Assembly (NCBI GenBank): GCA_003990765.1
Contig: RBNJ01000003.1
Location: 1-64,000, forward strand
Origin: Jimgerdemannia flammicorona
Lineage: Eukaryota
DNA: 64,000 bases
Reading direction: 5' to 3'
Part shown: in pieces, positions 8,980 through 64,000 of the stretch
Numbering within the stretch: the stretch's first letter is position 1
How the letters are laid out: every line of letters starts with the position of its first letter
Notes under the pieces: generated by a model
Database searches by the model: none
What the model was told of the DNA's origin: nothing
Seen by the model: the letters and a program-made list of their open reading frames with translations, nothing else
Translations under genes and position numbers: made by a program

Positions 8980-9350
8980 TCTTCTAGTAGATCTAAAGTC
9001 TTGTTCTCCTCTCTTAGTCTTGATGAGTTCAATGGCTTCAGTGGTCTTAGGCTTCTTGACTTTATGGATCAGTATCTGGCCAATTCTATCATACTTCTTA
9101 CTTCCAATAGGGTGGTGGGGTTGTGATTTCTGACTATAAGGAAGATCTCACCAGTATAATCAGGGTCAATGACTCCTCCTTCAACTGAGATTTTACTCTT
9201 GGCTAGATACTCCTAGTCTTGATAATTCTGATATAGTTCTCTGATAACTTGACTCCAATTCTAGTATCAAGTAGAGTGGTGGTCTGTAGTTTAAGGATAG
9301 TATCTTGGATACTGATAAGAATTTTTCCTACAGCTCCTTCAGTCTTATAT
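8980..9350 (-). pseudogene. dut: dUTPase domain within Gypsy A pol
   Basis: Motif 3 GGVIDPDYTGEI (~9145-9182) and decayed motif 5 RGEQDFRST (~8985-9013). Confidence 0.82.
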
Positions 9351-11567
9351 TTTGGGATCTTGGCTTTGGGGTAAAACTTCTTGACCTTGAGAGTGATGTC
9401 TGGTTCTTGTTCCTCCTCTGGGGGCTGGTCATCTTCTTTGGCTTTCTTTTTTATTTTAACAGCTTCTTGCTCATATCTTTACTGACAGATTTTTCTAACT
9501 TCACTGATATAGAACTGGCAGTCATTTAGATGTTTGGAGCAGTACATCCTGATACCATGGGGGTATCTTCCTTGCAGAGCATAGTCATCAATAATTTTAT
9601 TGTACCACTGCTCATCTGTAAGCTTGATTGTCTTACTCTTATTCTTATACACTGAGTGGATGAAGACTTCTGTGTCCTCTTCATCTCCTTCCTCTATATC
9701 TGGTAGTACTCCTTTGTAGATATTGATAGAGACTTGTACCTTTCATCCTCTATAGTTGATCTGTATCTTCTGGGCATTGAGGTCAATGATAGCCTTGACC
9801 TTATGAAGCCATTGGTTACTAATGAGGATATCATAGTTGGTGGTACTTATAATGATCACATCTACTGAGATAGTAGCTCCTCTAATCTTGATGGAGACTT
9901 CTTGGATCTTGTCTAGAGGGGTAGCTCATATATCATCTGCTGTGACATAGACTATTTTGGTGGATTTCTCAATATCTCAGCCTAGGTAGTCAATTGTTTT
10001 CTTGCTTATGAGGCATCCTTTAGCACTGATATCAATGAGAACATCAAAGATACAATCTTTAATCTGATATTGAGTACAGGCTGAGGTCTTGCACTGATCT
10101 TCAGATTCTTCATCTGAGTCTTCTTGTTTATCTTCTTGTACATTGTGAGCTTCTATGATCTTATACTCTAAGTTCTTGACAGTAGTTGTAAGTCCTGCTC
10201 TCAACTGCTATAGACTTCTGCTAGTTGTTCCTAAGTAGTATTGACCTTCTGTTCCTTAAGGTCCTTATAGATATCATACTGATGGATCTTGGTCTTATAT
10301 AGCTTCTATTCTTTCTTACTTTTACTTTCTTCTGAGACTGGAGTAGTGCCTTTAATAATTTGACAGGTAGCTTCATCTAACTTCATATCTTGATCAATCT
10401 TCTCAGATTGGGTCTTACTTTGGATAGTGATTGTTGAGGTCTTTCTAGATCTTCCAACTAGCTTACTGTTGCTCTTCTTATTATAGAGCTTGGACTGGGT
10501 TCTAGTATCTTCAGTATTAGGGTAAAATTCAGACTCCTCATAGTATTCTTCATTATCAGTATCAATAATCTCCTTAATGACTAGTGTATTGATTTGTTCT
10601 CTGGTTCTGGTAGTATCACTTAGTTGAGCTCTACATTATACAATTCTTTACATAGTGGCCTTCTTCTCCACATTTGAAGCATGTGATAGTATATTTCTCT
10701 ATAATAGCTGCAAACTTCTGCACTGGTCTCCTGTTGGCTCTTTGTACTTCTCTAACAATATTACCAAGATATACTATTATCTTGGCAAATTACTGGGCAA
10801 GTTCCTCTACTGGGTCAGCTTTGGTCATTTTGGGAGTAGGTGGAGATAGTTGTCTTTTGAGTGCTATGGTGAGTATGATACTGATTGGCTTTGGTGGCTC
10901 TATCTTGATACCAGTTATTCTTTACATTGAGTATTCAGCAGAGTGTCTGACAGTTCTATACATATCTCTGTACAAAGACTACTTTCTAATCAAGGATCAG
11001 AGCAGCTAGAGTATACTGGATGGCTAGGGCAATTTCTTGGTAGACTTCTTTAGGAAGATTGAATCAGCTATCTATTCCTTGAGGGTATTATCATAGTCAA
11101 CTAAGACAATCTGATAGCAGATTTGGGTGTAGAATGAGTTGAAGTCTTTATTGAGTCCTTGGCAGATAGTATTGAGTTGATCTTTGAGAGCTTGCTTGAT
11201 CTCTTTAGTATGATATATAGTTCTGAGAAAGTTCTTCATATTGGTGAGTTTGGCTATACCAGTATTAGTAAGAGTGGTTTACATTGAACTTATCTCTGAC
11301 AGGTCCTCTGAGGTTGATAAGTAGAAGTGTAAATTGTACTTCAACATTGAGAGCTTATACAGTAGCAAATTGTTCAAAGTCTTCAATAAAGGTCAGGATT
11401 AACTCTTAGTAGTAAATCTATAGAATGTGAGAGAATGCATTTCAATTTTATCTTGAATTCTTACAGGGGGTGACTCTTGTAGTTAGGGTAGTTGTTGTAG
11501 TGATTGTTTATTATTTAGCTTGAAAGTAAGAGATCCTAATGATATCACTAGCTAATAGGTACCAAGT

Positions 11568-13148
11568 TGTCATATAGGGGGTACTAAGTTCTCCAAGTAT
11601 ATCAGATTCTCTTCAAGATATATCTCTTAGACCAACTATAAGTTTCATATAAGTAAGTTCTATTAGAGTACCTTCCCAAGGTCTTATAGTCCTTAAACTT
11701 CATATCTTTAAACTATTCTATTGTTTCTTGGATTTGCTTATGTGGAATTGAGTACAGGACTGAAACTTTTGTACTCTTGAGTAGTTGGGTACTTAAATTC
11801 TTGAGAGTTTTTAATACTGGCTTTATTTCAAAAGAAATGAGAGGGGTATTTATACAAAATATAATTCAATGGTTACTAAGTTATAAAACTAAATATAAAT
11901 CCTAATAACCAAATAGATAAGATACTTGAACACAGAAAACTTCAGGTTGTAATTACAAATTTGAGTACTCATACAAATAGTTATATAAGATCAGAATACT
12001 AGAATAATTTCAACAGTTATACAAAGAACTTAGAGCAGAATGTTCAGAATCCTGAGGACTTTATCTTCATCACTATTATCAAGACCAGAGGTTGGGATAT
12101 CTTTGAAGGGACTAAGGTCAATAAATGTTTCTATAAGTATTCTGTTTATTTTATATATTGTGGGTATTTTGTACATTTTATATATGTCAATTAGTAGGAT
12201 GACATCATTGCTGATGATGTCATCACATTCAGTAGTAGTGGGGGGAGTAAGGAGATCAGAGGCTCTCTAATCTATGATATTTTCCTCCACAAAGTAGGGG
12301 ACAAAGGTGGGATCTTGAGGGGGTCTAACCTGGATACTGGGGTCTTAGAATACTGAGATTAATTCTTATAGGAATTGATTTGAGTTATAATTGAGAATGG
12401 AATTCTAGAACTCTTCTTTCTTATCACTTTTGAGAGTGATAGTAGATTGGACTTCTGTAGCCACTATAGCCTCCAATGTATCTGTGTGGCAGGCTGAAAA
12501 TTTCTTGAAGTCAGAGACTCTGGTATACTCCAAGTTGGGGATTGACCAAAGTATATATCTGAAATTTTTTATAGCTACTCTCAATTCACATATATCTATA
12601 GAGATAATATCTTGTATCTATTAGAGACTGATCTGAGGAAATTCTCAGCATAGAAGGTTTTCTAGTTTATATTCCTACCACATCTAGAGATATTTGGTAG
12701 CAGTAATAATCCTTATCTCTATTTCACAGCAGTAGAGAATATAGTGGTAAGAGTCACCAGTATCTAGGTTAATGCTAGAAATTCTTCTGATATGTGTCCT
12801 CATAGCTCCTCTGATGTCTTGAAATATCCTTTCTTTGACTGAGAATCCTTGGTAGTTCCTGGATCTTATAGTTTGGTGAGTGGTAGGCATTTTGTTTTTA
12901 GTGAGTCTTTTGAACTATTTCAGAATTTTGTGAGTCTTGTTTAAGGTGCTGCTGCTGTTGTTTCTTGGTCCTCTTTTATATTCTTGAGATATTCATCTTA
13001 TAGTCATTATGACTCATAGTTTGTCATCATTGCTCATCTTGTAGTCTGGGTGAGTTATGCCATATAATCCTCTTGTGCTCTGATCTGGTAGCTTGTAAGG
13101 AAAGACTATCTTCTATAATGATACCACTATTCTGAGATTACTGTTACA
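11568..13148 (-). repeat. Putative 5' LTR of Gypsy A (~1.58 kb) containing a decayed accessory ORF; possible alternative inner boundary at 12279
   Basis: Starts TGTCATA next to a TGG-initiated PBS-like sequence (11547-11563, minus); minus-strand TATA-like TATAAATACCCC at ~11845-11856; ends TGTTACA+ATAT. The partner LTR is not in the window. Confidence 0.6.
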
Positions 13149-14299: not shown

Positions 14300-15100
14300 A
14301 GAAGTTCAAACTATAGTTTCCTCCTTTATTAAGAGTCAGAGTATCTATATACTCCTATAGTGCTTCTTATATATTTTTCTAAGTTTCTTCCTTTTCTCAA
14401 ATTATATCATATATGGAGTAGTCTTTTTACTTGATTGAAAAAACTATTTTACTGTTTTCATATATCAGCTAATCTTGTAATTTAAGATTTCATCAATCTT
14501 AAATTCTTTATAATTATTAAACCTAACTAGGAGTTGGGGTGGTACTATATACTTTGAAAAAGAGTTTTTATGAAAGTTCACTAGTTAACTAATATGAAAT
14601 ACTAGATACATAGATATTATAAGAAAGCTCTAGTTTGTAGTTAACATTACTAAATTTTTCCAGAATTCAGCATAGTTCAATCCTTCTAGTTCAAAACTTC
14701 CTTAGTAGTTACTATACTAAGATATCTAGATATAAGTAGTCTGTTCTAATCATAACTTAGTTGCAAATATTATAAGAGACCTATCTTTACTTCTAGTTAA
14801 CATACTTGGTCTAATAGTTGTATACTTCTATTAAGACATCTTGAGACATTTATATAAGATCAGAGATAGTCTTAGCTAAGTTCTGTACTGCTGGAACCAT
14901 TGATTTCATAGTTATAATTTATGATCCTCAACTTCAGAATAAATGTAGACATTAATTTCTAAGAGAGAAAGAATATAATAGAATAAGTAAACAGATGAGA
15001 TATAATAATGAAGTAGAAGACATAAGAAGTGACTATATGATCTGATAAAAATATTATAATCAAGTATAGTATATGACAAACAATATAAATACCTCAAATA
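14300..15100 (-). pseudogene. Chromovirus integrase C-terminus with chromodomain remnant
   Basis: ILEKFSNVNYKLEL...VFHIS (~14590-14665), then FKIDEILNYKIS and a decayed W-E-x-E-E-N-L (~14340-14505). Confidence 0.65.
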
Positions 15101-15109
15101 CATACAACT

Positions 15110-16890
15110 AGTATCTAGCCAGCTCCATCCAAACTACTAAGACTCACTCAAAGTTGAGCTACTCATTATCAATATAATCCACCAGTTGCTCTCATAAATT
15201 ATTCCACCAGCCTCTCTTGCCATCCTCTCTTCTCACCACTTTTAGATAATTCTTAACTACTATTCAGAAGTTATCAGGAATCTTGTACTCTCTCAGCCAA
15301 TGTTCAGACATCTGTACAAGCTCCCCTTCTACCCTATATAATAGTACTTCTTATAATCAAAGTGTCCACTATCTACCAAGTGACTTAACTGAAGGGTCAG
15401 CATGATATTGCTCCTCAATAAATATTACTACACTACTCAGTACTTTGAAGAAAGTCACTATTGTACTTCAGTACTCCAGGATCAGATATCTGTCCAGTCT
15501 CACTACTCTACTCCAGTACTAATATCAAAGTCTACTAGAGAGAAATCCCCCAATAGTAACTGATCCTATCTCTATATCACTGGACTCTAATCAATCTCCC
15601 CCTCAATATCTGCTAGTATAGTCTAATATGATAGAAACTATCAGCCACTCTTTACTAGAAGTCCTTACACTACAAGCACTTACTACTATTTAGTTCAACC
15701 AATGACAACAGATTATCCAACAAGCCTCTGGGGAAAAACCTCCTCTCTCAGATCTTCTGTATCAGTAGCACCCACTCACTACTCTGTAGTTCAATATTCT
15801 GCTTCAACCACATAATACAACCTTTTAGAGAAGTTCATCAGACTAATATCACTTCTATTTACTAATATAGCTAAATTCTTCTCTCTTAGCTGATACTAAC
15901 TTCTAGCCCAGATCCAGTTCTTAGTCAATTTCAATAATCTCTTCATGACCTAGGTCAGAATAGTGGTAAGCCAGATATCATAGCTTTAGTAATTAGTAAA
16001 CATTTAGAATTAATATCTGTCTAGCCAGAGAGATATAGAACTTTCTCAGCTCTGAAGGTCTGCCCCCCAATTAGCAACCTTTCTCTTCTACCAAACTCTA
16101 GACAAAACAGATCTATATACTAACAAGAAGATAACCAGATATCTCATGGCTTCTCTTATAGTAACAATTGCCAATAATGTCTCCATCCACTAGTCTATTC
16201 TCCAATACTATTATCTTACACATATTCCAGTTAAGCTTTGCTCCAGAATATTTCTCATATTATTCTACCATTTCTCACAATATCTCAACATTAGTAACTA
16301 AGCCAAGACCAACTATTATATCATCTGCAAAGATACTAACCCTCTACACCATTCCAAAAACTGAGAGTCTAATCACCCTATAGCAAATTCTATTCATCAA
16401 TAGCTCCAATGACAGAGTATATAGAATATAGGACAATGGGTCTTTCTGAGAAATGCTCCTTCTCAATAAAAATATTATACTATAATGACCATTATATATA
16501 AGGGCCACCTGACTACCCTCTAGTAGACTAATTATTGAAACTCTAAACTGCTGAGAAATACTCATTCTTTCCATCATCTTTTCTAGCCAAACTCTTTAAA
16601 CCTGATTATAGACCTTCTTCTGATCCAGAAAGACCAATCACCCATTCAACTTACTTACTCTCACTCTCTCAATTGCACTATATACCCAAGCTATCCCATC
16701 TCTAATAAGTCTGTCTCTTAATAAAGTCTTATTTCTTCTCACTTAGTATCTGTTAGATCACTCTCAAGAATTACCTTTGTGACCAGCTTTCTGTTTATAT
16801 CTAGAAGTTTGATTGGTTACCAGTTCTTCTAATCCTCTCTCCTGTCCTTATCCTTAAACAGCAGGACCACCAGACTAAGTTTCTGCTCCT
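15110..16890 (-). mobile_element. Second decayed L1/Tx1-like LINE RT fragment
   Basis: ORF 16344-16577 (ISQKDPLSYILY), FADD at ~16320-16331, and clear similarity to the RT region at 1780-2620. Confidence 0.85.
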
Positions 16891-21046: not shown

Positions 21047-23349
21047 TGTGGCGTTGGTTATGTATAATGAACTTCGACTGCATAGCTCAATGTGTGCCAC
21101 TGGTGAAGTGCACGATGGATAACTGAATGCATTGGTGACGTTCGTGGGTTGTTGATCACGTGATCGGCTCATTTGATTCGTGCCGTAATTGATAATAGCG
21201 AGAGATTGTTTGACAATAGTAGCTCAATATTCAGTGGAAAAAGGTGTTGTTGCTAACAGAGGGTGGTTACTTGGGTATGCTGGTGGCGATAGACCTTATC
21301 AGAATATGCGGTCGATTTGAAGCAGGCGACGGTCTTGACTTTAAGAGGTTCGTGGTGCAGTAGGTCGGGAAAATGGAGGTTGATGGCTTGCTCATCCATC
21401 TTGGTTAATCTTGAAAGGTTCCTGGCAGTCGTTCGGGTCTTTGGTAGTGGGTCAGTCTTTGGCGGTCTAGTATCCTTTGGCTGGGTATCCTTGGGTTCTT
21501 TAGCTATATTGCCAGGGTCTTGAATCCCGAATGGTGGTCTGAATGCACAGTGGTCGTGGTCTTGAATCCTTGGCTGGGTCTCGGATCTCGAATGGCGGCA
21601 GTCAAATAGTGGCAGTCGGGTAACATTTTCTTTCCATGGCAAGAGAAAATTCTTTAACTCAAACTTCCGAGTGATCTATTGCTCTAGGTTGTTATCTTGT
21701 TCTCAGAATTTATCCAGTCTCTTGGAGGCAGTGGTTATTTCTCAAAACCAGTTGACTGAGGTTTATTCACTCTAAGAATATGGGTTATTTATACAAGTTT
21801 GCTAGCTATGGGGGAGGGGGCACAACTAAGGCTAAGGTATACTACGTTGTGGCAAACTTCGCTATGCTATTGGCTTGTATGATGCGAGGTGCAGGCTATT
21901 GTTTACTATGGATTGGGTTATAGGGGATAGCAATGCTGGATTCGGATGAGCTGACAGGAATGCTGATTGTTGCCAGAAATGGTTGTGGAGGGTAGCAATG
22001 CTGAAAATGGGTGTTGCTGACTTGCTGACAAAATGCTGAAAACGGTGGTACTGGGTAGCAACCCTGGAAACAGACGAGCTAACATGATATGATGATTGTT
22101 GCCAGAAACGGTTGTGGAGGGTGGCAATGCTAAATTCGGACCTGCTGACAAAAATGCTGAGTTCTCACGGCTGATGGGTGGTACTCTAGAGGAAATAGTA
22201 CCCTTCGTCTGCAGTGGGCAAATCTTGCTGGGTTGCGATTTCTTCTTCATCATATCTCTCCTCAAAGGGGGGAAGTGCCGGCCAAGAGGTGAGGGGGTAG
22301 AAAAGTGGCCAGTCATCTTCAACAACATTTTCCAATCCCTGAACTGCTTGAATGCAGACAGAGGACTGGTAGACTCTCTGTTGCTCCTCTTCTTCTTCTG
22401 AAGACTCGTCAGTTTCAGTGTTAGAGGGGGTTTCTTCAGGGGCAGGGCCTTGGAGTTCTTGGGCTTCTTCTTGATTCGGTTCCCAAGTGATGAGATGTGA
22501 ATTGTGGCTGACAAGGTGGTGGGTGGTTGGGGTAGCTCCAACGGGTGCTTCTATAGTAATGGGTGATCCTTCAAATATCTCCATAAGACTCATTAGGTGA
22601 CCTTGATGGTTGTCTCGGAGTGGAGTGGTGTGGAAACCTGGCTGAGTAGGTTCAGTTTGTTGGCTTCCTACAGTGATGCAGTTGCTGCCAATAGTGTTGG
22701 CTACTTCAGATTCTATCCAGTCAGCATCTTCAGTTGAAAGGCGGGAGAGGCTGCCAGCTGTTACTCCTTGCAAGTGTGCTATAGCTCAGGGAATATGGTG
22801 AAAGATTTGGTGGACACGAAGGGCTCTCTTGATTAGCCAGCTGGTGGTTAACATTTTGGCAATGAGGTCTTCCTGGTCATCTTCTTGAGTCTCATTGCGA
22901 AGGTGGTGTCCGATTTCGTAGTCATGCCAGAGGGTCATTTGTTCAGTAGAGTCTTTGAGCTGTTGGGTCATTATATACTGGTAGTTGATGAAGTGTCCAA
23001 GGTCCTCGGTGTAGAAGTTCAAGTGTTTGGAAGTATCAGGATGCCAGATGGCCTTCTTGATAGCTTCAAAGATCAGGGTCTTTGGGCCAGGCAAAGGGGT
23101 AGAGTGGCGGGAGGTCTGGTTGGATTGGCGAATGGGAGGTATTGTGTAGTGGGTACTTGGTTCTTTGGTGCCGATCCCTGAGGTAGAGTATGGTTCCTTA
23201 AATAATGTGGTCTTCATTTTGGCTTGGATCATCTTGTCTTCTTTTGGGATGATCACCTAATAGGTCAGGCTGTCTATTTGATTGTCACGCCATTATGTTG
23301 TCTAATCTTAGCAGTCACTGGTACTCCATTGTCAATTGCGTATGTCATA
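21047..23349 (-). mobile_element. 2.3-kb solo LTR of a related Gypsy family, inserted in Copia F integrase
   Basis: TGTGG...TGTCATA termini with ATAT on both sides. The Copia integrase sequence resumes after removal. Carries the family TATA/AATAAA block (GAGGTTTATTCACTCT...TTATACAAG, ~21758-21797). No gag/pol. Confidence 0.8.
22186..23256 (-). pseudogene. ~357-codon ORF of unknown function inside the solo-LTR U3, with one internal TGA
   Basis: ORFs 22786-23256 and 22186-22773 are in the same frame, separated by a single TGA (probable CGA deamination); homologous by eye to ORF3 of B/C. Confidence 0.72.
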
Positions 23350-24099: not shown

Positions 24100-25366
24100 T
24101 GTAATGTACCTAACTCAATAGAGGCAAATTACAAGGTTGGGGGTTGATGTAGTTTGGCTTGAGCCCCCAGTTACTTTGTCAAAAAGCAAAAAATTTTCAA
24201 ATATTTCTGAGGTCCTTGTTGGTGTTTAGTAGTATAATAGTTAAAACTAGATCTCTGTAAGAAATTTCCTTATTGGGACAGTTCTCTGGGTATAGTAGTG
24301 ATTTGTATGAAATGTATTTTCTTCTTGGATCAACTGGGAATTGGTAGAAATTCATATATAGTATAATCTCCTAAAGTATGTGATTTCTGGGTGACAAATT
24401 CTTGTGTAGTATGATGATCTTGTGTGTGACAGTCTAGCAATTTAGTGGTTTCTTCTTCTTAGATAGCAGGCAATCTCTATATAGTGCAATGATCTTCTTA
24501 CTGGAAATAATACTGGTAGTGGGTAACTCAACAACTCAGGCTCACTGGGAACAACATATAACTTAGATGTCACATAACTTATATAACTTAGATGTCATGG
24601 ATTCTTCCTAAATTGGCAGCTTTAACTGGAAATATGAACAACTGGTGGCTTTGGGAAAGGGTCTCTTGGTAAATTTATGTTAAAGACTGGTTTTGTTTGT
24701 ATGATAGATTACTGCAAAGTTGTATCAGAAACTGGCTTGAGCAAGGCAGCTTTCTTTTAGGCTTTCTGGGAATGTGAATAACTTAGAAATAGTAGCAAAG
24801 TTCTTTCTTGAACTTGGGTAGCAAACTTGGATTCTTTAGACTAAGTCTGGCAAGTATACTAATAATTCTAAAGGCAGTGAAGTTCTTCACTCAAACTTGG
24901 TAACAAAATCAGCTTTGTATTGAAAAGTGGACTGAAGTGGAAAGGGGACCAATGCTCAATCTTTAGAGGCTTCTTTGGTGTTTGTATTTTGGACTGAGGT
25001 TTATTCACTCTTGTCTATGGGTATTTTTATATAGGTTAGTTTCTATCTGATTGCTATGTGGCTAGCTATAGATTTACTACTTCTGGAAATATTTGGGTAT
25101 ATTCTCTGGGTATCAGTATATCCATAGGACATGAGTGTGTCTGTAGGATATGAGTGTGTCTGCAGAACATGAGTGTGTCCACCAGACACAGGTGTGTCCT
25201 CAGGATTTAGATAAACAACCCTGGTGTGATATCCTGGCTAATTATAAGTATGGTGGGTGTGAGTAACTATGATATACTGGAAGTCATGTTATGCTGGCTA
25301 AATATACTAATTATTCACATCATCTGGCTAAGTTATAATTTAGGTGGTATATTTTGGTTTGTTACA
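24100..25366 (-). repeat. Gypsy B 3' LTR
   Basis: TGTAATG...TGTTACA; direct repeat of 32836-34088. Confidence 0.93.
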
Positions 25367-25405
25367 TCAGCTCTTACTAAAGGATAGTCTGTTCCAGACA
25401 ATTCT

Positions 25406-25921
25406 TTAGTCATTATTCCAATAGGTATAAGCAGCTTCTGCATCTATACATATTCTATCATCTTTATTATCTATACAAGAGTCACTCCATTCTAAAGGCT
25501 CCTCCTCTTCCTTAGAAAATAGAGTCTCAACATAGTAGATGATACTGAGGTAGGTGGGCAGAGTCATTCTTTAGAGATTGTTTAGGGAGAACTGGGCCTG
25601 GATTAGAGCTAAAGGGTTTTGTTTGTAGATTGTATATAATCTTTCTGCAGCAGTAGTATTCCTTCAGTTCAGACCAGTAGTGTTGCAGACATAGGTCAGG
25701 TCTGGGAGGGGGAGATTCTGCAATTGTTCTCCAATTGCATAGTATGTCTACAGCTGGTGGACTTAGAGTAATCTCTTAGCCAGAGTGAGGTTTTCTTGAT
25801 GAACCCAGATTCTCTGAAGGTATGTTCCATTGAGTTCTCTGAACTATAATAAAGGAACTAGTAGGGCTTGAAGGGAACTAAGGACAAGAGTCTGAAGGTA
25901 GTTGTCAATTCTCTGGTTCAT
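25406..25921 (-). pseudogene. Gypsy B accessory ORF3 (~170 codons) between integrase and the 3' LTR
   Basis: ATG at 25921 overlaps the pol end. Reads MNQRIDNYLQ...YYAIGEQLQNLP...AAERLYTIYKQNPLAL... with a few stops; conserved at protein level in C 52518-52948. Confidence 0.72.
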
Positions 25922-28768
25922 AGTATGGAGAAAGATATATCTTGAGATAATTGATATATACTAGTGTCCTCAGGGTTCATCCATTCATACTTCTTAAATA
26001 GATGCTGATTCCTCTGATGTTGTGTACAAAATAAGATCCTTCCCATTTGGGCTCCAATTTGGAGGCAAAATTCATTTCAATTATACTTCTCCAAATCAGT
26101 ACTTGATCTCCAATCTTAATCTTCTAGTCCTTCTGTTTCTGGTCATAGTACTTCCTTTGTCTTTCTTGGGCTTTGGTTATCTGAACTTGGGCCTGATTAC
26201 ATAACTGTTCTGCCTTCTTGAGGAGATCTCTGAGGTTCTCATGATCAGTAGTTCTGGTTTTCTTAGCAAACATTATTTCAAATGGCTTTTGTTTAGTGGA
26301 GGCAGTAGGGGTATTCTGAATCTTGCATAGGATCTCAGGTAAGCAAAGATCTCAGTTAGTAGGATTGATCTGGGTATGTTCTTTCTTGATGGTCTGGTTC
26401 ATTCTTTCTGTCATGCCATTGGTCTGAGGGTAGTATAATGTGGTCCATTTGAGGTGGATCTTGTGAATTCAGATATAACTTGTAATTACATTATTGATGA
26501 ATTCTGTGCCTCAGTCAGAGGTGAGTTCTTCTGAGTATCTATATCTGAGTGTAAGTCTATGGAGAAGATCTACAATGGTTAAGGCATCTGCGATTTCCAT
26601 TAGGAAAGCCTTGGGTCACTTGGTCAGATGTTCTACAAATATAAGGATGTATTTGTTTCATCTTAGTGTAACTGTTAGAGGTCCAATTACATCTACTCCC
26701 CATCTTTGAAAGATGTGAGTGGGTGGAGGAATTGGTTGCAGAGGAGCTTGATAGTTCTTCTTTCCTTGGTACTTCTGACAGATGTCACATTTCTGGATGA
26801 TGTCCCGAACTTGAGTTCTGAGGTGGGGCCAATGTTGATATTGTTTTCGAATCTTGTCTTCTATGCTTGTCTATCCTTGGTGGGTTTTCTGGTGTTCTTT
26901 TCAGATAAGATCTTCTTGTGCTTTGATAGTCTGAGGAGCTTCCTTTAGAGTGTAGTTCCTTGGGACACCCTTCTTCTGGTTTATTGGGGCTGGCAAGAAA
27001 GTATATCAACATTGTTGTGAGCTTTTCCTGCTTTGTGGATGATGGTGATTTTGTATTTCTGAAGGATAAGGATCCAGCAGGCTAGGATTCTGGTGGGTTT
27101 CTTGCAGTTGAATAGCCATTTGAGGGCTACATGGTCTGTGATCAGTGTGAACCTTTTTTTTGATGAGGTAATGCTTGAACAGAGTAACTACCGATATAAC
27201 TGTAAGATATTTCAGTTTGGTGCTACAATAGTTCATCTGCTGCTGATTGGTAGCTCAGCTTGCATAAGCTATCATATTGGGTTATTGGTCAGATCCTTCT
27301 TGGGCTAGAACTACTCCTAGGCCATCTTTAGAAGCTTCTGAATATAAGATAAATGGCTTCTGTAGATTGGGGTGCACAAGGATTGATGCTGTAGTCATAC
27401 AGTTCTTGAGTTCTTTGAAGGCTGGTTTTTGTAATTCTGTCTATTTTAATGGTACTTCTTTCTTAAGAAGGATCCAGATAGGGGTAGCAATTTGGGTGCA
27501 GTCCTTGATAAAACTTCTGTAGTAGGATACTAGCATCAGGATTAATAGTGTTTTCTTTGGGGTCTTGGATACTGTCAAATTGTTGATCTTCTCAGTTTTC
27601 TTTGAGTCTACATAAGTTCCTTTTTTTGAAACCATAAATCCAAGGAATTCGAGTTTCCGTTTTCCAAAGTAGCATTTCTTTGCATTTAGTCTCAAGTGAT
27701 TCTTGCGGGTGAGCTTGAAGAATTCATCTAGGTGGTGCAGGTGTTCTTCGAAATTTGCTGAATAGATGTTGGAATTGTCCATGTATACAATCAGGCAGTA
27801 GTGGATTAAAGGGGCATAGACTGAATTCATCATCCTCTAAAAGGTGGGGGGTATATTGCAAAGTTCAAAAGGCATTCAGAGGTATTCAAACAGTTGTCCT
27901 AAAGCAATAAAGGCTGTTTTTTGAATGTCTTTGGGATCCATGGAGATCTCATGGAATCCTTCAAAAAGATCCATACTGCTGAAGTATCTGGCATCCTGTA
28001 ACTAATCCAAAAGGTCATCAATTCTGAGCAAAGAATAGGCATTCTTTTCAGTGACTGAATTGAGTTTCCTGTAATCTACACAGAGTTTCCATCCTCCTTT
28101 CTTTGGTACAATAAGTATAGGGCTGGGCCAGAGACTGGTAGAGAGTCGGATGACTCTATTGTTTAAGAGTTCTTAAATGTGCTGTTTTTAAGTAATGGGG
28201 TATTCTATAGGGTTTCTGACAGTTGTGTGTTGTATTTCCTGTATTGATTCTGTGGTGATATGATGGATTGTATGGCAGGTTACCATAATCAGCAGTGAAG
28301 ATATCTTGATATTTGTTGAGAAGTTCTACTAGTTGTTGCTGCTACTGGGGCATCAATTCTTCTCCAATGTTGGTGGAAGGCTTCACTGTCTCCTGGGTCG
28401 CAGAGGGGCCTTTTCTTTCTTCTGGGACCTTTTGCCATTTCCCAATAGATTTAGTATGTAAACTTCTCTATGAGTTTGGTTGAGAAAAGGCACCAGATGT
28501 CCTATGATGATTTCCCAACTTTGGTTGGTTGCTTGGGAGTAAACCAGGTTCATCTTGTCAGGGAATGTGTGTCCTTCCATATCCAAGTGTGGGATATCTT
28601 CATTGGGTTCAAAAAAAAAATTCCTGGGGTTGGGTGGTACAAAGATTTCAAATGTAGTTTGTTCTCCAGGCTCTAGAATGAGATTCTTGTGCATTTGACT
28701 GGTTGGCAGTATACTTTCTGGGGAACATTCCTCTTGAGGTGGTTGACTTGAAGGAGATGTACTTTCTT

Positions 28769-29140
28769 TCTTCCAAATCCTTTGGCTTGTCTTGTTTCTC
28801 CAGTCAGTTTGGAGACCTCTTGTAATTGTGGGGTCTTGATCTTCATGAAGACTGCTTGGGCAATCTTCTGTCCTCTAATAATTTGGTACCACTCTGTGCC
28901 ACTGTTGTATAGGATGACCTTGATTTTGGCTGTATATCCTGGATCAATAGTTCCTCCATCTACAGTTATTCCTTATCTGACAAGTCCAGACCTTAAGGTC
29001 AGTTGGATATAAGCTACTTGAGGTGGCTGCATGGCTAGTCTAGTTCTGATTATGAAAGTTTTTCCAGGCTTAATGGATTCATCCTCCAGACAGTAAAGAT
29101 CATACTCTACATCTTCTGGGTGAGTCTTGGTTGGGAGTTT
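28769..29140 (-). pseudogene. dut: dUTPase domain within Gypsy B pol
   Basis: RSGL, GGTIDPGYTAKIK, GQKIAQ and RQAKGFG motifs on the minus strand. Confidence 0.88.
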
Positions 29141-32835: not shown

Positions 32836-34088
32836 TATAACATGCCCAGCTCAATAGAGGTAAATTACAAGGTTGGGGGTTGATGTAGTTTGGCTTGAGC
32901 CCCCAGTTATTTTGTCAAAAAGCAATAAAATGTTCTAAGATTCCTAAGGTCCTTGTTGGTATTTAGTGGCATAATAGTCAAAACTGGATGTCTGCAAGCA
33001 ATTTCCTTATTGGGACAGTTCTCTAAGTATAGCAGTTATTTGTGTATAAATGGATTTCCTTCTTGGGTCAACTGAAAATTAGTAGAAATTTAGGTGTAGT
33101 GTGAGCTCCAAAAGTATATGATTTCTGAGTGATGATTTCTTATATAGTATGATGATCTTGTGTGCAATTTAGTGGTTTCTCCTTCTTGGGTGGTAGGCAA
33201 TCACTATGTAGTACATATAATGATCTTCTTACTGGGAATAATGCTGGTAGCAGGTAACTTGATAACTTGGACTCACTGGGAACAATGAATAACTCAGATG
33301 TTGGATAACTCAGATAACTCAGATATCATGGATTCTTCCTAAATTAGCAGCTTCAACTGGAAATACAAACAACTGATGGCTTTGGGAAATGGTCTCTTGG
33401 CAAAGTTACATCAAAGACTGTCTTCATTTATATAATAGATTACTGTGAAGTTGTATCAGAAACTTGCTTGAGTAAGGTGGTTTTCTTTTAGGCTTTCTGG
33501 GAATACAGATAACTTAGAAATGATGGCAAAGTTCTTCCTTGAACTTGGGTGGCAAACTCAGATTCTTCAGGCTTAGTCTGGCAAGTATACCAATAATTCC
33601 AAAGGTGGTGAAGTTCTTCACTCAAACTTGGTGGCAAAATCAGCTTTGTATCAGAAAGTAGAACAAAGTGAAAAGAGGACCAATGTTCAAGCTTCTTTGG
33701 TATTTGTATTTCAAACTGAGGTTTATTCACTCTTGTCTCTGGGTATTTTTATACAAGTTGGTTGCTATCTGATTACTATGTGGCTAACTATAGATTTATT
33801 ACTTCTGGTAATGTTTGAGTATATCCTCTGGGTATGGGTGTGCCCACAGGACATGAGTGTGTCTACAGGACATGAGTGTATCTATAGGACATAAGTGTGT
33901 CTGTCAGATAAAGGTGTGTTCTCAGGACATAGATAAATAACCCTGGTCTGGTATTCTGGCTAATTATAAGTATGGCAGATATAAGTAACTATGATATACT
34001 GAAAGTCATATTATATTGGCTAAATATGCTAATTGTCAACATCATCTGGCTAAGTTATAATTCAGGTGGTATATTTTGGTTTGTTATA
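32836..34088 (-). repeat. Gypsy B 5' LTR
   Basis: Direct repeat of 24100-25366; adjacent PBS; 18-bp tandem repeats in U3. Confidence 0.93.
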
Positions 34089-39043: not shown

Positions 39044-39265
39044 AACAAAAATAAAGAAAAAGATTCAAATATTAAAAAGTAAGCTAAAAAAATAAAATAA
39101 AATAAAAAAATTACTCTCTTACACAACTATCTGCTATATCAAAGCTACAAATGCTAATATAAAATTATATAAAAAAGAAAAACAGAAAGTTAATAATTTT
39201 TAAAATAGGGAAAAGTGCAGAATATTATTCTAAAGATTATAAAGATAGAATGAAACTCCACCTAC

Positions 39266-40063
39266 CTTCTTTCTGATACTGCCAACTTTCCCCTCATTAT
39301 CTTTATACTTGCCCTTGACTTCTTTCTCCCTCTCCTTCCTCTTCTTCCTCTCTCTCTCTCTTTTGCTCTTCACCGTCTCTCTCTCCCTCTCCCACTCCTT
39401 CTTTCTTTCCCTTACCTTCCCCTTCTCCCTTTCCCTCTCCTTCTCCTTCTCGCTTCGGCTATTTCTCGCCTTCTTATATGTCACACCCTGTGTTTTCGAA
39501 AATATTTTTGGTGAATTACGTGGCATGAATGAAACAAAATTACGGGCTGGATGGAGCGTTGATTACGTACTCGCGAAGACGACGGTCCTCCCTCATCATC
39601 GACCACCTTCGTGTGAAAATAATAAATACAAGAATGTTTAATATTGTTTCAATGATGAGAAAGTCAAAGAATCTCATAGAAATCCCACCTCGTCGAGATT
39701 CTTCCGCTTTCTTAAATTGGGTGCCGTTTTCTTCCGTCCAACTCTCGCATATTTCGCTGCCTTCTTCTCAGCATGTTTGCGTTCGGCCTCCGAGTTTTCA
39801 TCCGAACTAGCAAAAGTTTCAGGGTCCACGCTGCTGGCAGCCGCGACACGGTCCAACATTTTTCGAATCTCTGGCGTGATGATCATTTCCAATACTCCAT
39901 AAGTAACTGGTGGCGTCGAAAGAGCTGGAGGTAGAACCGATGGTGTGTCGGATGGGGGAGGTTCCCAAGGATGAGGTGGAGCGGAAGGGGATGTTGTCGC
40001 CTCGAAGGAGAGAAGTGGGCCAGCGGACCCCACAGTAGTCGATGTATTAGAAGCCGGGTTCAT
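39266..40063 (-). CDS. Spliced gene of unknown function (Pro/Ser/Thr-rich N-terminus, basic NLS-like stretch, Lys/Glu/Arg-rich exon). Exons 40063-39689, 39606-39571, 39487-39266; 3' end unresolved.
   Basis: Two phase-0 GT-AG introns of 82 and 83 bp (GAG|GTGGGA...GAAG|, CGA|GTACGT...ACAG|) join ORF 39674-40063 in frame to ORF 39230-39526. A further donor-like AAG|GTAGGT sits at 39265. CpG-rich. Confidence 0.65.
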
Positions 40064-40497
40064 TGTTGCTGTAAAGTGGTAGTTCTCCGGAATCTGGTGT
40101 ATAATTTTTTTTTGCTAACTTTGTGACTGCGTCATAATTACGTCTACCACGCCAAATATTGGTGCATGGGCGATTCGTTATTCTCTCCATTATGTGCGCC
40201 CCCATCTCCCCTTTGCAATCTAATCCGGTCGAGATTACTTTTCAACAACAACTTCTTTTATATTGCTTAACAGAATTATGATTCCACCATGCACTATGCT
40301 CGGTTTTTGTCGAATTTCACATCAAACACGCTTACATGATGAAATAAATGAGACATGACACGAAGCCTGGTGTCAATTTGCCTATACGACTGTCATGCGC
40401 ATTGTAATATAATCGCCCATAACAGCGGAGTTCAATGCTCTCTCCAGACAAATACAAAACATAATTTTCGACCATGGCATACACAATTGAACTTCGA
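39440..40497. promoter_or_regulatory. CpG-retaining island covering the 5' part and upstream region of the spliced gene
   Basis: Dozens of CG dinucleotides, against near absence in the adjacent old TE DNA. Confidence 0.75.
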
Positions 40498-40499
40498 TT

Positions 40500-40839
40500 A
40501 AGACTTTCGTTTATGTATCAGAAAGTGGACTGGAGTGGGAAAAGGAAGCTCTCTGCTTTTCTTTGACTTTTCAGACTGAAGTGTATTCACTCTTTTCTCT
40601 GGGGTATTTTTTACAGTTGTGGTTGCAATCTGGTTGATATCTGGATAATTAAAGAATGCCCAGTATGGCCAAATATGGTATATAACTTCCACTGTACCCT
40701 CAGGATACAGTACCTTCAAGGCACAGTACAGTGTCTTCAAGGTTCAGTCAACTCAATCTGGCTATTTATGCTCTTTATATATTTTCTGCCATAACTGAGT
40801 AACTATATAGGTGACTATAGTATACTAAGTATTTATATC
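40500..40839 (-). repeat. Partial LTR of the B/C Gypsy family; its terminus continues at 45945-45981 after the Copia E insertion
   Basis: Matches C LTR 52150-52275 (GTGGGAAAAGGAAGCTC, TATTCACTCT...GGGGTA); ends TATCACA at 45981. Confidence 0.72.
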
Positions 40840-45944: not shown

Positions 45945-45999
45945 ATATTATCTGATTATACTATGCTATTTGTATATCACAATTATCTTTAAATTTGTA

Positions 46000-51459: not shown

Positions 51460-52477
51460 TGTAATGTGCCCAGCTCAATAGAGGCAAATTACAAGGTTGG
51501 GGGATGTGTGAATTTGGCTTGAGCCCCTAGTTACTTTGTTTAAAAGCAACAAAATGTTCTAAAATTCCTGAAGTCCTTTGATGTTTAGTAGTATAATAGT
51601 CAAATCTGGATATAGCAGTTAATCATATGTCGATTTCCTAATTGGGTCGGTTCTCTGAATATAGTAGTGATTTGTGTATGAATAGGATTCCCCAATTAGG
51701 TCAACTGGAAATTCCTGTGTAGCGTGATGATCTCTTGTTGACTGGGAATAGGTGGATAATTTGTGTAGTATGAGCGGTTTCCTTCTTTAACTGGGAATGC
51801 GGGTGATTTATATAGCATGACAATCTCCAAAGTAGATGATTTCTGGGTGATGACAGATAACTTGGGCAGATTTTTGGCAAAGTTACATTAAAGACTGGCT
51901 TTATTTGCATGGAGTTATGTTGAAACTGGCTCTACTGCGAAGTTGCGTCAAAAGACTGGCTTTGTGGCAAAATTCCTAAGGTGGCAGGTTTGAACTTAGA
52001 TAGATTTCTCTTCAAATGGCAGCTCTTCTTGAGTGGCAGAATTCGGATTCTTCAGGCTTGTAATTTCTTAGCAGTGGCTCATTGGCAGGTTTCTCCTCCT
52101 AAGTGTACCAGACAATTTACTTTTATATTTCAAGCTTTCGAACTCAAACTTTGTATTGGAAAGTGAACCAGAGTGGGAAAGGAAGCTCCTGCTTTTTGAT
52201 TTCAAACTGAGGTTTATTCACTCTAGCTTCTGGGGTAATTTATACAATTTGGTTGCTATCTGGTTGCTATAAGGCTAACTATAGGCCTGCTATTTCCAGT
52301 AATAGTGTTCCACTTGGGATGGGTGTTCTGCTTGGAACAGGTGTTCTACTTGAGATGAGTGTTCCACTTGGGATGAGTATACAGATTTGGTATTTGGGTT
52401 AATTATAAGTAGGTAACTAGGTAACTATATTTATACTGAAAGTTTGCATCATCTGATTATGTACTTGGCTCATCACA
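51460..52477 (-). repeat. Gypsy C 3' LTR
   Basis: TGTAATG...ATCACA; direct repeat of 59799-60778. Confidence 0.93.
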
Positions 52478-52517
52478 TTAGCCCCCACAAAAGGGTAGTC
52501 TGTCCCCAGACTGTCCT

Positions 52518-52948
52518 TTAGTCATCATCCCAGTGGGGATAAGCATCATCTGCATCTATTCCTGTCCCATCATCTTTATCTAAGCTGCAGTCACTCCATT
52601 CTAAGGGTTCTTCTTTTTCTGGGGATAGGATTTCAACTTGATGAATGATGCTGAGATAGGTAGATTGGTTCATTCATTATATATCTCTGAGAGAAAACTG
52701 TGCCTGTCCCAGGGCTGAGAGATTTCTTTTGAAGATTGTGTACAGTCTGTCTGCTGCAGTGGTGTTCTTTCTGCTCAGACCAGTGGTGCCACAGATATGG
52801 ATCACATCCAGGGTGGATAGGTTCTGCATCAGTTCTCCAATTGCATAGTGGGCCTAATGCTGATGGATTTGTAGAAGCCTTTCTGCCAGAATGAGGTTTT
52901 CTTGGTGATTTCAGATCTTCTGGATATAAGTTCCATTGGGTTCTTGGA
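52518..52948 (-). pseudogene. Gypsy C accessory ORF3, N-terminus deleted
   Basis: Reads QEPNGTYIQKI...HYAIGELMQNL...AADRLYTIFKRNLSALGQAQFSL...YPHWDD*. Confidence 0.72.
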
Positions 52949-55711: not shown

Positions 55712-56084
55712 TGTCTGAGCTTCCAAATCCTTTGGTTTGTCTTGTTCCTTGCATCAGTTCACGAACTTCTTGTAGCTGGGGAGTCTTGGCCTTCATGAAG
55801 ACTGCTTGTGCAATTCTTTGTCCTCTGAAAATTCAGTACCATTCAGTACTACCATTCTTCAGGATAATCTTGATTTCGCCTGTATATCCTGGGTCTATGG
55901 TTCCTCCTTCCCCAGTGATTTCTTGCTTGGCTAGCCCAGACCTTGAGGTCAATTGGATGTAAGTTCCTTTGGATGACTGTATGGCTAGTCCAGTTCTGAA
56001 TACTACAGTTCTTTCAGGTTTGATTGGTTGATCCTGCAGACTATAGAGGTCATAGCCTACATCCTCCTGGTGAGGGTGCGGCAA
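55712..56084 (-). pseudogene. dut: dUTPase domain within Gypsy C pol
   Basis: All five trimeric dUTPase motifs: VGYDL, SRSGL, GTIDPGYTGEI, GQRIAQ, RQTKGFGSSD; one internal stop. Confidence 0.92.
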
Positions 56085-59798: not shown

Positions 59799-60778
59799 TA
59801 TAATGTGCCCAGCTCAATAGAGGCAAATTACAAGGTTGGGGGATGTGTGAATTTGGCTTGAGCCCCCAGTTACTTTGTTTAAAAGCAACAAAATATTCTA
59901 AGATTCCTGAAGTCTTTTGGTATTTAGTGGTATAATAGTCAAATCTGGATATGGCAGTTAATTGTATATCAATTGCCTAATTGGGTTGGTTCTCTGAGTG
60001 TAGTGGTGATTTGTGTGTAAATAGGATTCCCCAATTAGGTCAACTGGGAATTCCTGTATAGCGCGACAATCTCTTGTTGACTGAGAATAGGTGGATAATT
60101 TGTGTAGCATGAGCAGTTTTCTTCTTTAACTGAGAATGTGGGTGATTTGTGTAGTATGATGATCTCCAAAAGTAGACGATTACTGGGTGACAGTGGATAA
60201 CTTGGGCAGATTCTTGGCAAAGTTATGTTAAAGACTGGCTTTGTGGCAAAATTCCTAAGGTGGCAGATTTGAACTTAGATAGATTTCTCTTCAAATGACA
60301 GCTCTTCTTGAGTGGCGGAATTTGGATTCTTCAGGCTTGTAATTTCTTAACAGTGGCTCATTGGCAGGTTTCTCCTCCTAAGTGTACCAGACAATTGACT
60401 TTTGCATTTCAAGCTTTCAAACTCGAACTTTGTATCGGAAAGTGAACCAGAGTGGGAAAGGAAGCTCCTGCTTTTTGATTTTGAACTGAGGTTTATTCAC
60501 TCTAGCTTCTGGGGTAATTTATACAAGTTGGTTGCTACATATCTGGTTGCTATAAGGCTAACTATAGGCCTGCTATTTCCAGTAATAGTGTTCCACTTGG
60601 GATAGGTATTCTACTTGGAACAGGTGTTCCACTTGGGACGAGTGTTCCACTTGGAACAGGTGTCCCACTTGGGACGAGTATACAGATTTAATATTTGGGT
60701 TAATTAAAAGTGGGTAACTAGATAACTATATTTATGCTGAAAGTTCGTGTCATCTGGTTATGTACTTGGCTCGTCACA
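59799..60778 (-). repeat. Gypsy C 5' LTR
   Basis: Direct repeat of 51460-52477; adjacent PBS; ends GTCACA+ATAT. Confidence 0.93.
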
Positions 60779-62567
60779 ATATAGATAAGTATAAGATATA
60801 TAAATAAGAGAGAATCTTATTTATATGTGAAACTCAGAATCTAGAAATATGTAAAAAACTGATTAGTAAAAAATATGAATGAAAGAATATAAATAAAAAA
60901 AAAACATAAATAAAAATGAAAAATTTTAATAAAAAGGAAAAAGTATAAAAAAGAGTATAAGGTATAGTATAATGCCATTGAGGCTTAAGAGCATAGGAGC
61001 TCTTTCCTCTTATAATTATTATTCAGATCTCTCATTCTATAAAACTCAATTTGGAATATCTGAGAATACCCTTTAGATCAATATCACAATAATATAAGTA
61101 GTTTCTGATCTAGAAGATAGGTGGTAAACTATTTAGGCCAAAATTGTGAGAGGTCTAGAAAAATTAGAATGTGAAATACAGCCCACCAACTATTAATTGT
61201 AGCTTGTAATTTAAGACAACAGAATACTCCTATAGAGTAGAGTTTTAAAATATAAATGCTAAGTAGAATATATATAAATAGGATCAGCATAGTAGAATAT
61301 ATATGAGATCTATATGGTAGAATATAAATGAGACTATATAATAAAATTTAAATGAGATCTACATGATTTATATAGATTCAAATAGGTATAGAAGAATAAT
61401 ATAAATAGATATAGAAATATAAGATATATATCTTAGTAAAATGACATTTAATTTCAATAATCTTAGACTTGTTTAAAAGCTCTGAATTGTGAGTGATTTT
61501 CCAATAAGCTCAAGAACTTCAAAATCAGATATCATTTCATTGAGTTATCGTCATATATATCAAATAAATTGAAGGAGTCCAAACTCATAGGCCACTAATA
61601 GGCTCCAGATATTAATTGTTTAAGTAATTCTACTATGTTCCCTGCTCCATCTCTAGAACCTAAACTAGTATGGTATATTATTATTAAAGTCTATAGTAGT
61701 TGTAGCAATTATAAATTCAGCTTTGGATATATAATCTCAGTCTAGGTAAATGATTAGATGATCTATTTTGGTTGGACTAACTCAGTAAGCCAAAGCAACT
61801 ACTCTGATGTATAGAAACATAATCACACATCCTTTTTTCTATATATACTCCTCCTCTCCTCTCTTTATATCTGATATTTATATATTTCATCTATAGCAGC
61901 CCCCCTCTTAATATCAAGGTATATTTAGTAGACAATCTTATATTTTTATATTCATTCAAACAATGAGACCAGTAAGGAGCTTGTGTTTCTGTCTTGAATA
62001 TATATACTATCTTTTAGTATTTTGGCATATTTTTGCTTACATATTTATTTTACCATTTATATTGATATTATTAAATACTACCACAGTTTAATTTCTTTAT
62101 GAATTATAATTTGTTATTCTTTAAAATATATTCAGACCTTCTACTATTATAGAGTACTTAATAGTATGAACTAAATAGGTTGCAAAAAAGTCAATATTGG
62201 GCTAGCTGGCTGAGGAAGCCTGAAAACTGTTCTCAATCTTACATCTACTAAGACCAGACCTATACCTTCTACAAAGATATCTAGACATACTAATACAAAC
62301 TTCAAAATCTGTACAACTATTATAATGATTTCACCAGTATTTCAGATATATTATAGAGAGAGAGGGGGGTTTCTATTCTTCAATTCTATTTTTTAAATAG
62401 ATTATATATTATATCTGACTATATATCTGTCTCTGATTCTATTCTTTGATTTCTATCTTTTTTGATAGGTTATATATTGTGTCTGAACTGAAGATTATAA
62501 GAGGGAGTTTCTATATTATATTTGGGATTAGCAGATATCTCTATGACTGGAGATATCTAACTATCTT

Positions 62568-63760: not shown

Positions 63761-64000
63761 CTTTTATATTTATTTATTTTATTATATTATATTTTCCAAA
63801 CCACTATATTTTTATACAAATCTTACAAGTTGGTCATTACTGTTTTATTATTTCTGCAATATTCAGAGATCTTGGACTATTGACATTGAATATATCTATA
63901 GTACCATATGCCATCTGTGTAAGATAGATGGCTATATTCTAGAAGAATACTAAATTGACAACTGTTCTAATACTGTCTGTATTGAGAATGATCAAAATCA

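Follow-up and report, generated by a model that had tools for sequence, protein, structure and literature searches.

A short gene after pol in a decayed dUTPase-bearing Ty3/Gypsy family of Jimgerdemannia flammicorona: a probable family-restricted accessory protein

What, if anything, is encoded between the integrase and the 3′ long terminal repeat (LTR) of a Ty3/Gypsy retrotransposon whose genes have long been in decay? The question is raised by a stretch of 64,000 nucleotides from Jimgerdemannia flammicorona (contig RBNJ01000003.1 of GenBank assembly GCA_003990765.1, positions 1 to 64,000 of the forward strand; the whole of it is referred to here as the window), which holds the Gypsy-type elements called A, B and C below. 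In element B the integrase is followed by an open reading frame (ORF) of 171 codons plus stop, here named ORF3. A preliminary description of the locus took it for a small accessory protein, kept under selection and common to at least three diverged Gypsy families. The analysis reported here upheld the gene and narrowed its family: ORF3 is very probably a real and selected accessory gene that is restricted to the family of elements to which B and C belong.

The separate ORF of about 170 codons that had been noticed after the integrase of B was confirmed, and the peptide stretches quoted for it were found exactly. Comparison of the window with itself placed ORF3 inside element B (Table 1), where it takes up the whole of the space from integrase to 3′ LTR and ends 41 nt before the latter. 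The frame directly upstream matches zf-H2C2 and rve of Pfam and carries 8 stops in 386 codons. Pfam searches with the longer open frames identified both B and C as Ty3/Gypsy elements in which a dUTPase follows protease and precedes reverse transcriptase (RT); the dUTPase domains lie at 28676-28972 minus in B (E 1.5e-11) and at 55836-56117 minus in C (E 5.2e-15). ORF3 of B is itself interrupted by five in-frame stops (TAG26, TAA53, TAG58, TGA86 and TAA117), and the residues that intact relatives have at these positions are Q, E, P, L or R.

Those intact relatives were found in protein databases. A search of 5.8 billion proteins gave 5 matches among 57 candidates, including full-length proteins of 171 and 172 residues (P0003 and P0004), both of them intact and 64% identical to the B protein over 100% of its length, and the clusters of the matched proteins held further intact copies of 171 and 170 residues, which brings the intact full-length relatives of 170-172 residues to P0003, P0004, P0013 and P0015. 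An exhaustive HMMER search of 1,835,955,588 representatives with a profile made from B and C returned 5 proteins at E ≤ 0.001. When the results of both searches are pooled, the relatives form two subfamilies that are about 50% identical to each other. Their sources are environmental records of ENA or JGI, on contigs of 662-11765 nt with no informative name. At the DNA level, a metagenome scan with P0004 found one locus, L001, on a metagenome contig of 1569 nt; a scan with the ORF3 alignment gave 593 pattern matches, none of them a relative, and there was no DNA relative in any of 48 stretches of viral contigs or 100 stretches of genome contigs. Pfam had no family at E ≤ 1 for ORF3 of B or C, and none at E ≤ 0.01 for the intact P0003, P0004 and P0008, while the best match in a PDB sequence search reached an E of only 0.26. 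Together with a fold search described below, these checks gave no confident match to a characterised domain. As far as sequence comparison goes, the ORF3 family is narrow, with no detectable relative beyond itself.

Three copies are available as DNA, namely B, C and L001, and all pairs of them differ in the manner of coding sequence. Between B and C the differences at the first, second and third codon positions number 35, 25 and 60, with 142 sites each (chi-square p 1.2e-5); the corresponding figures are 41/26/66 of 118 for L001 and B (p 3.9e-7) and 35/23/48 of 92 for L001 and C (p 6.5e-4). If only transversions are counted, a test that is unaffected by transition-biased decay, the periodicity is still significant for both comparisons with L001 (p=0.0029 and 0.0096). 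The ratio of nonsynonymous to synonymous differences (pN/pS) is 0.30-0.46 in the ORF3 frame, whereas shifting the same alignment into the other two frames gives 0.79-1.14, and the Jukes-Cantor estimate of dN/dS is 0.13-0.25 over the compared copies, with synonymous sites near saturation. The integrase, used as a control, showed the same periodicity under tighter constraint (30/18/59 of about 183). The preliminary description was therefore right in two of its points, that the same protein is present in C with many synonymous differences (pS 0.64 vs pN 0.19) and that ORF3 has been under selection, as the third-position excess, the low pN/pS and the intact relatives show. Two other readings of the frame were considered and set aside. 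An alternative frame, open for 82 residues in B and 139 in C, has a pN/pS of about 0.8-1.1 and more stops overall, and a genetic code in which TAA and TAG stand for Q was rejected because there are in-frame TGA stops too and the copies are otherwise decayed.

The homologous ORF3 of element C has 141 codons plus stop and four internal stops, two of which are at the same positions as in B. Its protein is 58.6% identical to that of B over 145 residues (61% in a second comparison). Only 141 of the 171 codons are present because about 244 bp, equivalent to 25839-26082 of B, have been lost from C, and the deletion took the integrase end together with the first 28 codons of ORF3. In self-comparison 7157 bp of B and C align at 77.1% DNA identity, a figure that falls to 71.2% in the region of ORF3; therefore the two are old copies of one family, and the earlier notion that they represent families whose DNA no longer aligns had to be given up. 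On their sequences, B and C are two dead copies of one narrow family.

The decay of these copies has left its mark in the window. The observed/expected ratio of CpG is 0.14, the divergence of the LTR pairs of B and C consists nearly entirely of transitions (transition/transversion ratios of 5.2 and 12) and C/T differences between LTRs are concentrated at CpA, which accounts for 71 of the 103 scored for B and, for C, 24 of 54. This is a decay signature of the kind left by repeat-induced point mutation (RIP-like) or by methylation and deamination. Glutamine codons were turned into stops because C-to-T at CpA is exactly the change that makes TAA or TAG from CAA or CAG, and since the C/T changes are so concentrated, a parallel gain of stops in B and C is plausible; descent of both from one already broken copy is possible as well. 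The suggestion that the stops shared by B and C mark a non-coding frame was rejected, as Q or E stands at both places in the intact relatives.

The protein itself does not look like an envelope. The highest mean hydropathy (Kyte-Doolittle) over 19 residues is 0.94-1.46 in five of five relatives, which is under the usual level for a membrane helix, and the relatives have either no cysteine or one. With no membrane segment and no cysteine cluster, ORF3 is therefore neither an envelope nor a zinc-finger protein. The preliminary description had already remarked on the lack of a signal peptide or transmembrane helix and on the unlikeness to errantivirus env, and both remarks hold, as Pfam gave no env profile match either. 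Its picture of a small helical protein agrees with an AlphaFold2 model built from 15 sequences, which is all-helical at low confidence (predicted local distance difference test, pLDDT, 49.9) with helices at residues 2-18, 34-69, 72-81, 86-101, 103-109, 113-118 and 121-134. P0003 is present letter for letter in the ESM Atlas, where its model has a predicted template-modelling score (pTM) of 0.68 and a pLDDT of 0.76; a feature search of the Atlas yielded only unnamed clusters at 0.93, which gave no lead.

Conservation is strongest in two blocks, the central helix and, at the N-terminus, a leucine-rich stretch with P-x-P-L-P after it. The layout suggested by the model is that of an N-terminal leucine-rich helix, a proline-rich linker, a long central helix, several shorter helices and a tail. 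In the four full-length relatives, residues 1-135 have an isoelectric point (pI) of 8.8-9.6, and the last 35-37 residues, with 15-18 aspartates or glutamates and no lysine or arginine, one of 4.05. Two tryptophans are conserved in this acidic tail, which is probably disordered. As a resemblance of pattern only, the conserved L-S-S-F-Q-S-L-P-x-P-L-P fits the spacing of leucine-rich export signals, and the acid-aromatic tail the make-up of acidic activation domains.

A prediction of the two-copy complex, made from the database proteins only, scored 0.64 where the best of three controls scored 0.00. At least 92% of contacts recur between runs, the pLDDT of the partner is at least 66, and the predicted interface brings together residues 30-84 of both copies in antiparallel fashion (for example 41 with 59-60, and 52 with 52). 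The mark applied to this score is reached by 21 of 30 proteins solved as same-chain pairs and by none of 23 solved as single chains; among eukaryotic proteins it is reached by 17 of 29 pairs, although by only 1 of the 7 without an older solved relative, and by none of 30 single chains. The ORF3 protein is accordingly a predicted antiparallel homodimer, and self-association, a trait of accessory proteins of the Rev/CERV or Tas kind, is found here at the level of the model (0.64 vs 0.00).

What might such a protein do for the element? The preliminary description suggested a transactivator, an anti-silencing factor or a targeting factor as candidate roles. We propose a dimeric adaptor, by which the element would further its own expression. 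The helical body would bind the nucleic acid of the element or a host factor, and the acid-aromatic tail would recruit host machinery, either for transcription activation or for RNA handling and export, in a role analogous to that of the retroviral regulators and of CERV in the nematode element Cer1. Argued as it is from analogy, the adaptor role has about one chance in three of being right. As a whole, the explanation that we regard as the best, that of a lineage-specific accessory gene of a dUTPase-bearing Ty3/Gypsy family with this proposed role in expression, is given a probability of roughly 0.55.

The junction with pol bears on how the protein might be made. The integrase frame of L001 stays open over its last 183 codons, up to a closing CCA TGA, and the ATG of ORF3 shares its T and G with the integrase stop, which gives an ATGA junction with ORF3 in the −1 frame. 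A stop and start that overlap or lie no more than about 20 nt apart are one feature of termination-reinitiation cassettes of the calicivirus or victorivirus type, another being a structured RNA stimulator directly upstream (a TURBS with an 18S-complementary motif, or a pseudoknot); L001 has the overlap. B retains the ATGA, while a deletion of 1 nt, 4 nt upstream, has shifted its integrase frame; in C the junction is lost. All 13 of the 13 readable N-termini start with M-T or M-N, residues whose codons begin with A in the standard code. For the database relatives this is seen at the protein level, and it is compatible with a conserved ATGA without being proof of one. In the minimum-energy folds of L001 and B, the word GGGAAG, which belongs to the W-E-G codons of integrase, pairs with a CUUCCC-like word just upstream of ATGA (L001 1086-1094 and 1195-1210; window about 26035-26045 and 25925-25940 minus). 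As the folds overall are no better than those of shuffles, the predicted pairing may serve as a lead for a restart signal only.

Several observations weigh against the explanation given above. All of the DNA copies compared have stops in ORF3, including L001, with 3 in 118 codons even though its last 183 integrase codons are open; the estimates of selection come from three decayed copies with saturated synonymous sites; and for B and C the periodicity is not significant when only transversions are counted (13/10/17, p=0.36). The dimer is a matter of model confidence, and the calibration is weak for eukaryotic proteins without solved relatives. The body of the protein is only mildly basic and has no recognised nucleic-acid-binding motif. 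The nearest structures in the ESM Atlas reach a template-modelling score of at most 0.37 and are helical hairpins of histidine kinases, which gave no lead, and a Foldseek search of PDB with the low-confidence AlphaFold2 model found none at E ≤ 0.001 (best E 1.3), so that among the Atlas, Foldseek, Pfam and PDB searches neither a fold nor a sequence relative points to a function. At the junction, the overlap with an open integrase frame is known from one copy, L001, and the 171 nt around it fold no better than shuffles: 127 of 200 shuffles match or beat L001 (z +0.38) and 66 of 200 match or beat B (z −0.29), in a test that ignores pseudoknots.

Two routes of expression compete most closely. By analogy with precedent, the one that we favour is that ORF3 would be made from a spliced subgenomic RNA, for which we put the chances a little short of even. 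The other is that ribosomes which finish pol on the full-length genomic RNA restart at the ATGA, which would hold ORF3 to a fixed low ratio to Pol. Coupling of this sort at stop/start overlaps is described, in passages of PMC10275272 and PMC5972666, for caliciviruses, influenza B, victoriviruses, hypoviruses and the non-LTR element SART1, with AUGA and UAAUG overlaps documented in the RNA viruses and SART1, and the retrotransposons that these passages name, SART1 and LINE-1, are both non-LTR. Restart at the junction would account for the overlap with the open integrase frame in L001, for the retention of ATGA in B and for the A at +4 in all 13 N-termini, yet the overlap with a readable pol end comes from one copy only, the second residue may be conserved for reasons of the protein, and no stable structure is predicted upstream. 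The sole UGGGA-type word, found by eye about 125 nt upstream, follows of necessity from the W-E codons conserved in integrase. Moreover, the ORF3s of LTR elements typically come from spliced messages, according to PMC5408684. No example of a stop/start restart in an LTR retrotransposon surfaced in literature searches, which is no proof of its absence from print. Taken together, reinitiation is the less likely of the two routes.

A different role altogether would be that of an integration cofactor, in which ORF3 is a separately encoded tether that replaces a missing chromodomain of integrase and guides insertion. The integrase does end right after its C-terminal module, and Pfam shows only zf-H2C2, rve and an MLV-IN-C-like stretch, with no chromodomain after integrase and no chromo match in ORF3. 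The gene adjoins that for integrase, with which it is possibly coupled in translation, and a predicted dimer with an acidic tail would suit a tether. Against this, the Pfam, Atlas, PDB sequence and Foldseek searches showed no similarity to any chromatin reader, and adjacency of genes alone is weak ground for a shared function. We consider the tether improbable and the adaptor in expression the better proposal.

Even less can be said for the view that ORF3 merely extends Pol at its C-terminus, by way of −1 frameshifting or of an ancestral change of frame. The frame of ORF3 is indeed −1 to that of integrase, with which it overlaps, but 8 codons before the ATG it is closed by a stop in L001, no slippery heptamer is evident there by eye, and a methionine stands at the same position in all 13 readable copies. 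No longer fused form was scored among 1108 candidates, which is weak evidence by the tool's own rating. An extension of Pol is thus very unlikely.

The preliminary description had gone further and seen a single accessory protein in at least three diverged Gypsy families, represented by B and C, by the element that left a solo LTR and by element A. This breadth did not survive and is now hard to credit, since B and C are one family and the ORF of the solo LTR is, by all the tests made, unrelated to ORF3. That ORF, at 22189-23256 minus, has 356 codons with one stop and belongs to no Pfam family. When ORF3 of B and of C was searched by tblastn against the whole window, only B and C were found, all other matches having E ≥ 1.5. 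A hidden Markov model (HMM) of seven ORF3 sequences, run in six frames with filters off, likewise picked out B (E 3e-96) and C (E 9e-80) alone; what ranked next, at E 0.5, lay in an unrelated copia region, so the weaker alignment reported with element A was not recovered. The proposed alignment with the solo-LTR ORF fared no better. Smith-Waterman scores against its 356 residues stayed within those of shuffles for all five family members, with the observed score equalled or exceeded by 148 of 500 shuffles for B, 31 of 500 for C, 96 of 500 for P0003, 197 of 500 for P0004 and 309 of 500 for P0008, and the profile-profile comparison of the two alignments by hhalign gave a probability of 0.46% (E 0.13) over 15 columns. 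In favour of kinship, a 66-residue core excerpted in the preliminary description did beat shuffles in global alignment, only 2 of 1000 reaching its score, in a test biased in its favour because the segment had been picked by eye for its matches; and hhalign and Smith-Waterman both chose one short patch, L-x-K/R-R-x-L-x-V-H-Q.

The solo-LTR ORF has connections of another kind. A relative in the protein databases, P0016, has 325 residues and is 74% identical to it (E 7e-146), and the profile of its family matches element A at 12315-12848 minus over 180 aligned positions (E 2.9e-6), in a region 1.6-2.2 kb on the 5′ side of the CCHC knuckle of A. Since this match is 5′-proximal in A, the solo-LTR ORF differs from ORF3 both as a gene and in its place within the element, and of the links drawn earlier, that between the solo-LTR ORF and element A stands, whereas the tie of either to ORF3 of B and C falls. 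On its sequence it looks like a conserved 5′-proximal ORF, or the N-terminal part of Gag, of A-like elements. With no accessory protein common to the families in the window, there is no evidence here for an ancient accessory gene shared among Gypsy elements.

Finally, the idea that ORF3 is a chance open frame in a non-coding spacer, to which the stops in all three DNA copies might point, is close to negligible in view of the intact copies of 170-172 residues on independent contigs, a third-position excess and low pN/pS that are confined to the ORF3 frame, and a second subfamily at about 50% identity with the same start and core.

Table 1. Positions in the window of ORF3 and its parts, of the flanking features of elements B and C, and of landmarks in element A.
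Feature	Position	Strand	Remark
ORF3 of B, decayed (5 internal stops)	25406..25921	minus	64% identical, full length, to P0003 and P0004
ATGA, the ORF3 start codon and next base	25918..25921	minus	its TGA is the integrase stop in the relative L001
Codons 30-84 of ORF3: long central helix, most conserved block, predicted antiparallel homodimer interface	25670..25834	minus	
Codons 136-171 of ORF3: acidic tail with two conserved tryptophans	25409..25516	minus	
Short spacer from ORF3 stop to 3′ LTR; expected place of the polypurine tract, judged from position	25365..25405	minus	
Integrase of B: zf-H2C2, rve core, C-terminal module	25922..27080	minus	Pfam
3′ LTR of B	24114..25364	minus	83.5% identical to 32850-34086
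5′ LTR of B	32850..34086	minus	self-comparison
ORF3 remnant of C, N-terminal 28 codons deleted	52518..52943	minus	
3′ LTR of C	51462..52480	minus	84.5% identical to 59801-60781
5′ LTR of C	59801..60781	minus	self-comparison
CCHC knuckle of element A	~10640-10684	minus	
Protease of element A	~9758-10093	minus	
RNase H of element A	~7694-7990	minus	

The remainder of the window offers observations of its own. In element C (56714-59759 minus, by eye), about 2.6 kb separate the 5′ LTR from the zinc-knuckle region of Gag, which suggests a Gag or leader of unusual length with acidic, serine-rich stretches. Around element A, direct repeats at 201-2500 and 15097-16872 are collinear, 66-78% identical and some 14.9 kb apart, and possibly represent the two LTRs of a very large element, inside which the minus-strand Gypsy pol (about 6300-10700) would lie. 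Both repeats are strongly C-rich on the plus strand, with a GC skew down to −0.5. The roughly 3.5 kb that separate the left repeat from the end of A's integrase (2500-6000) are richer in GC and strongly skewed, and hold several plus-strand ORFs of 100-200 codons, antisense to the pol of A and without a Pfam match. A copia-type element occupies 39200-46000 minus (RVT_2, Pol_BBD, gag_pre-integrs and Retrotran_gag_2), with 154-bp repeats of 92% identity at 40839-40992 and 45791-45944, and is adjoined by a weak third dUTPase fragment at 46125-46448 minus (E 0.0017). An array of tandem repeats of about 120 bp, 61-85% identical, lies in AT-rich sequence at 62486-63800.

Among the extra ORFs that follow pol is the env of the errantiviruses. 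ORF3 resembles errantivirus and retroviral env in its position after pol and before the 3′ LTR, and differs in being a protein of 171 residues that has neither signal peptide nor transmembrane segment nor a match to an env family. Extra ORFs after pol are thus a known kind; as judged from sequence searches, ORF3 is neither env-like nor chromodomain-like and matches no described family.

In layout there is a close parallel with the bdelloid rotifer elements Juno, Vesta and TelKA, which, according to PMC5408684, are also of Gypsy type, have their dUTPase in the same place and carry, downstream of pol, an ORF3 that is specific to the family. The rotifer ORF3s are described there as often not being envelope genes; the non-env ones are of several kinds, small coiled-coil or uncharacterised types among them, and are usually made from spliced messages. 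The types given are a GDSL lipase, a DEDDy exonuclease, transmembrane or env-like proteins and 'CC', whereas no enzymatic domain was found here; it is by these descriptions that the two are set apart. The host of the window also looks unlike a rotifer genome poor in transposable elements. Among fungi, PMC2864245 reports Gypsy elements that have a dUTPase after protease and before RT; for some of the fungal families it draws an 'add. ORF', an additional ORF whose function is unknown. The comparison is again by description, and a relative of ORF3 may already be among these ORFs.

In the proposed role, the nearest counterpart is CERV of the Caenorhabditis elegans element Cer1, a non-envelope accessory protein of a Ty3/Gypsy-type element that, according to PMC10309623, is made from a spliced Cer1 mRNA, self-associates and is needed for export of the genomic RNA. 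The ORF3 dimer is predicted only, and unlike it CERV has a role shown by experiment and a known spliced message (PMC10309623), the two being compared by description. In its junction, ORF3 resembles calicivirus VP2, influenza B BM2, the victorivirus RNA-dependent RNA polymerase, hypovirus ORF B and SART1 ORF2, all of which, according to PMC10275272 and PMC5972666, have an out-of-frame AUGA overlap near the 3′ end of the RNA. These systems have a demonstrated stimulatory RNA element, whereas none is evident in the folds at the ORF3 junction. The ATGA junction is nevertheless the one feature that could lift ORF3 beyond a known kind of post-pol ORF.

Genes gained after pol show how retroelements acquire regulatory or infectious abilities, and very few of the non-envelope ones have a known role. 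ORF3 is a clean orphan case among them, being short, under selection, represented by intact copies in public databases, free of relatives that might bias its reading and provided with a predicted dimer interface. Among accessory proteins of retrotransposons it could become a case that is open to study, and its ATGA junction allows the question of restart to be put in an LTR element. The strongest form of the proposal is a long shot, namely that ORF3 is restarted at a conserved AUGA after gag-pol and yields a dimeric regulator of the Rev/CERV/Tas kind with an unseen fold, held at a fixed low ratio to Pol. If true, it would mean that an LTR retrotransposon uses a coupling that has until now been reported from RNA viruses and from non-LTR elements.

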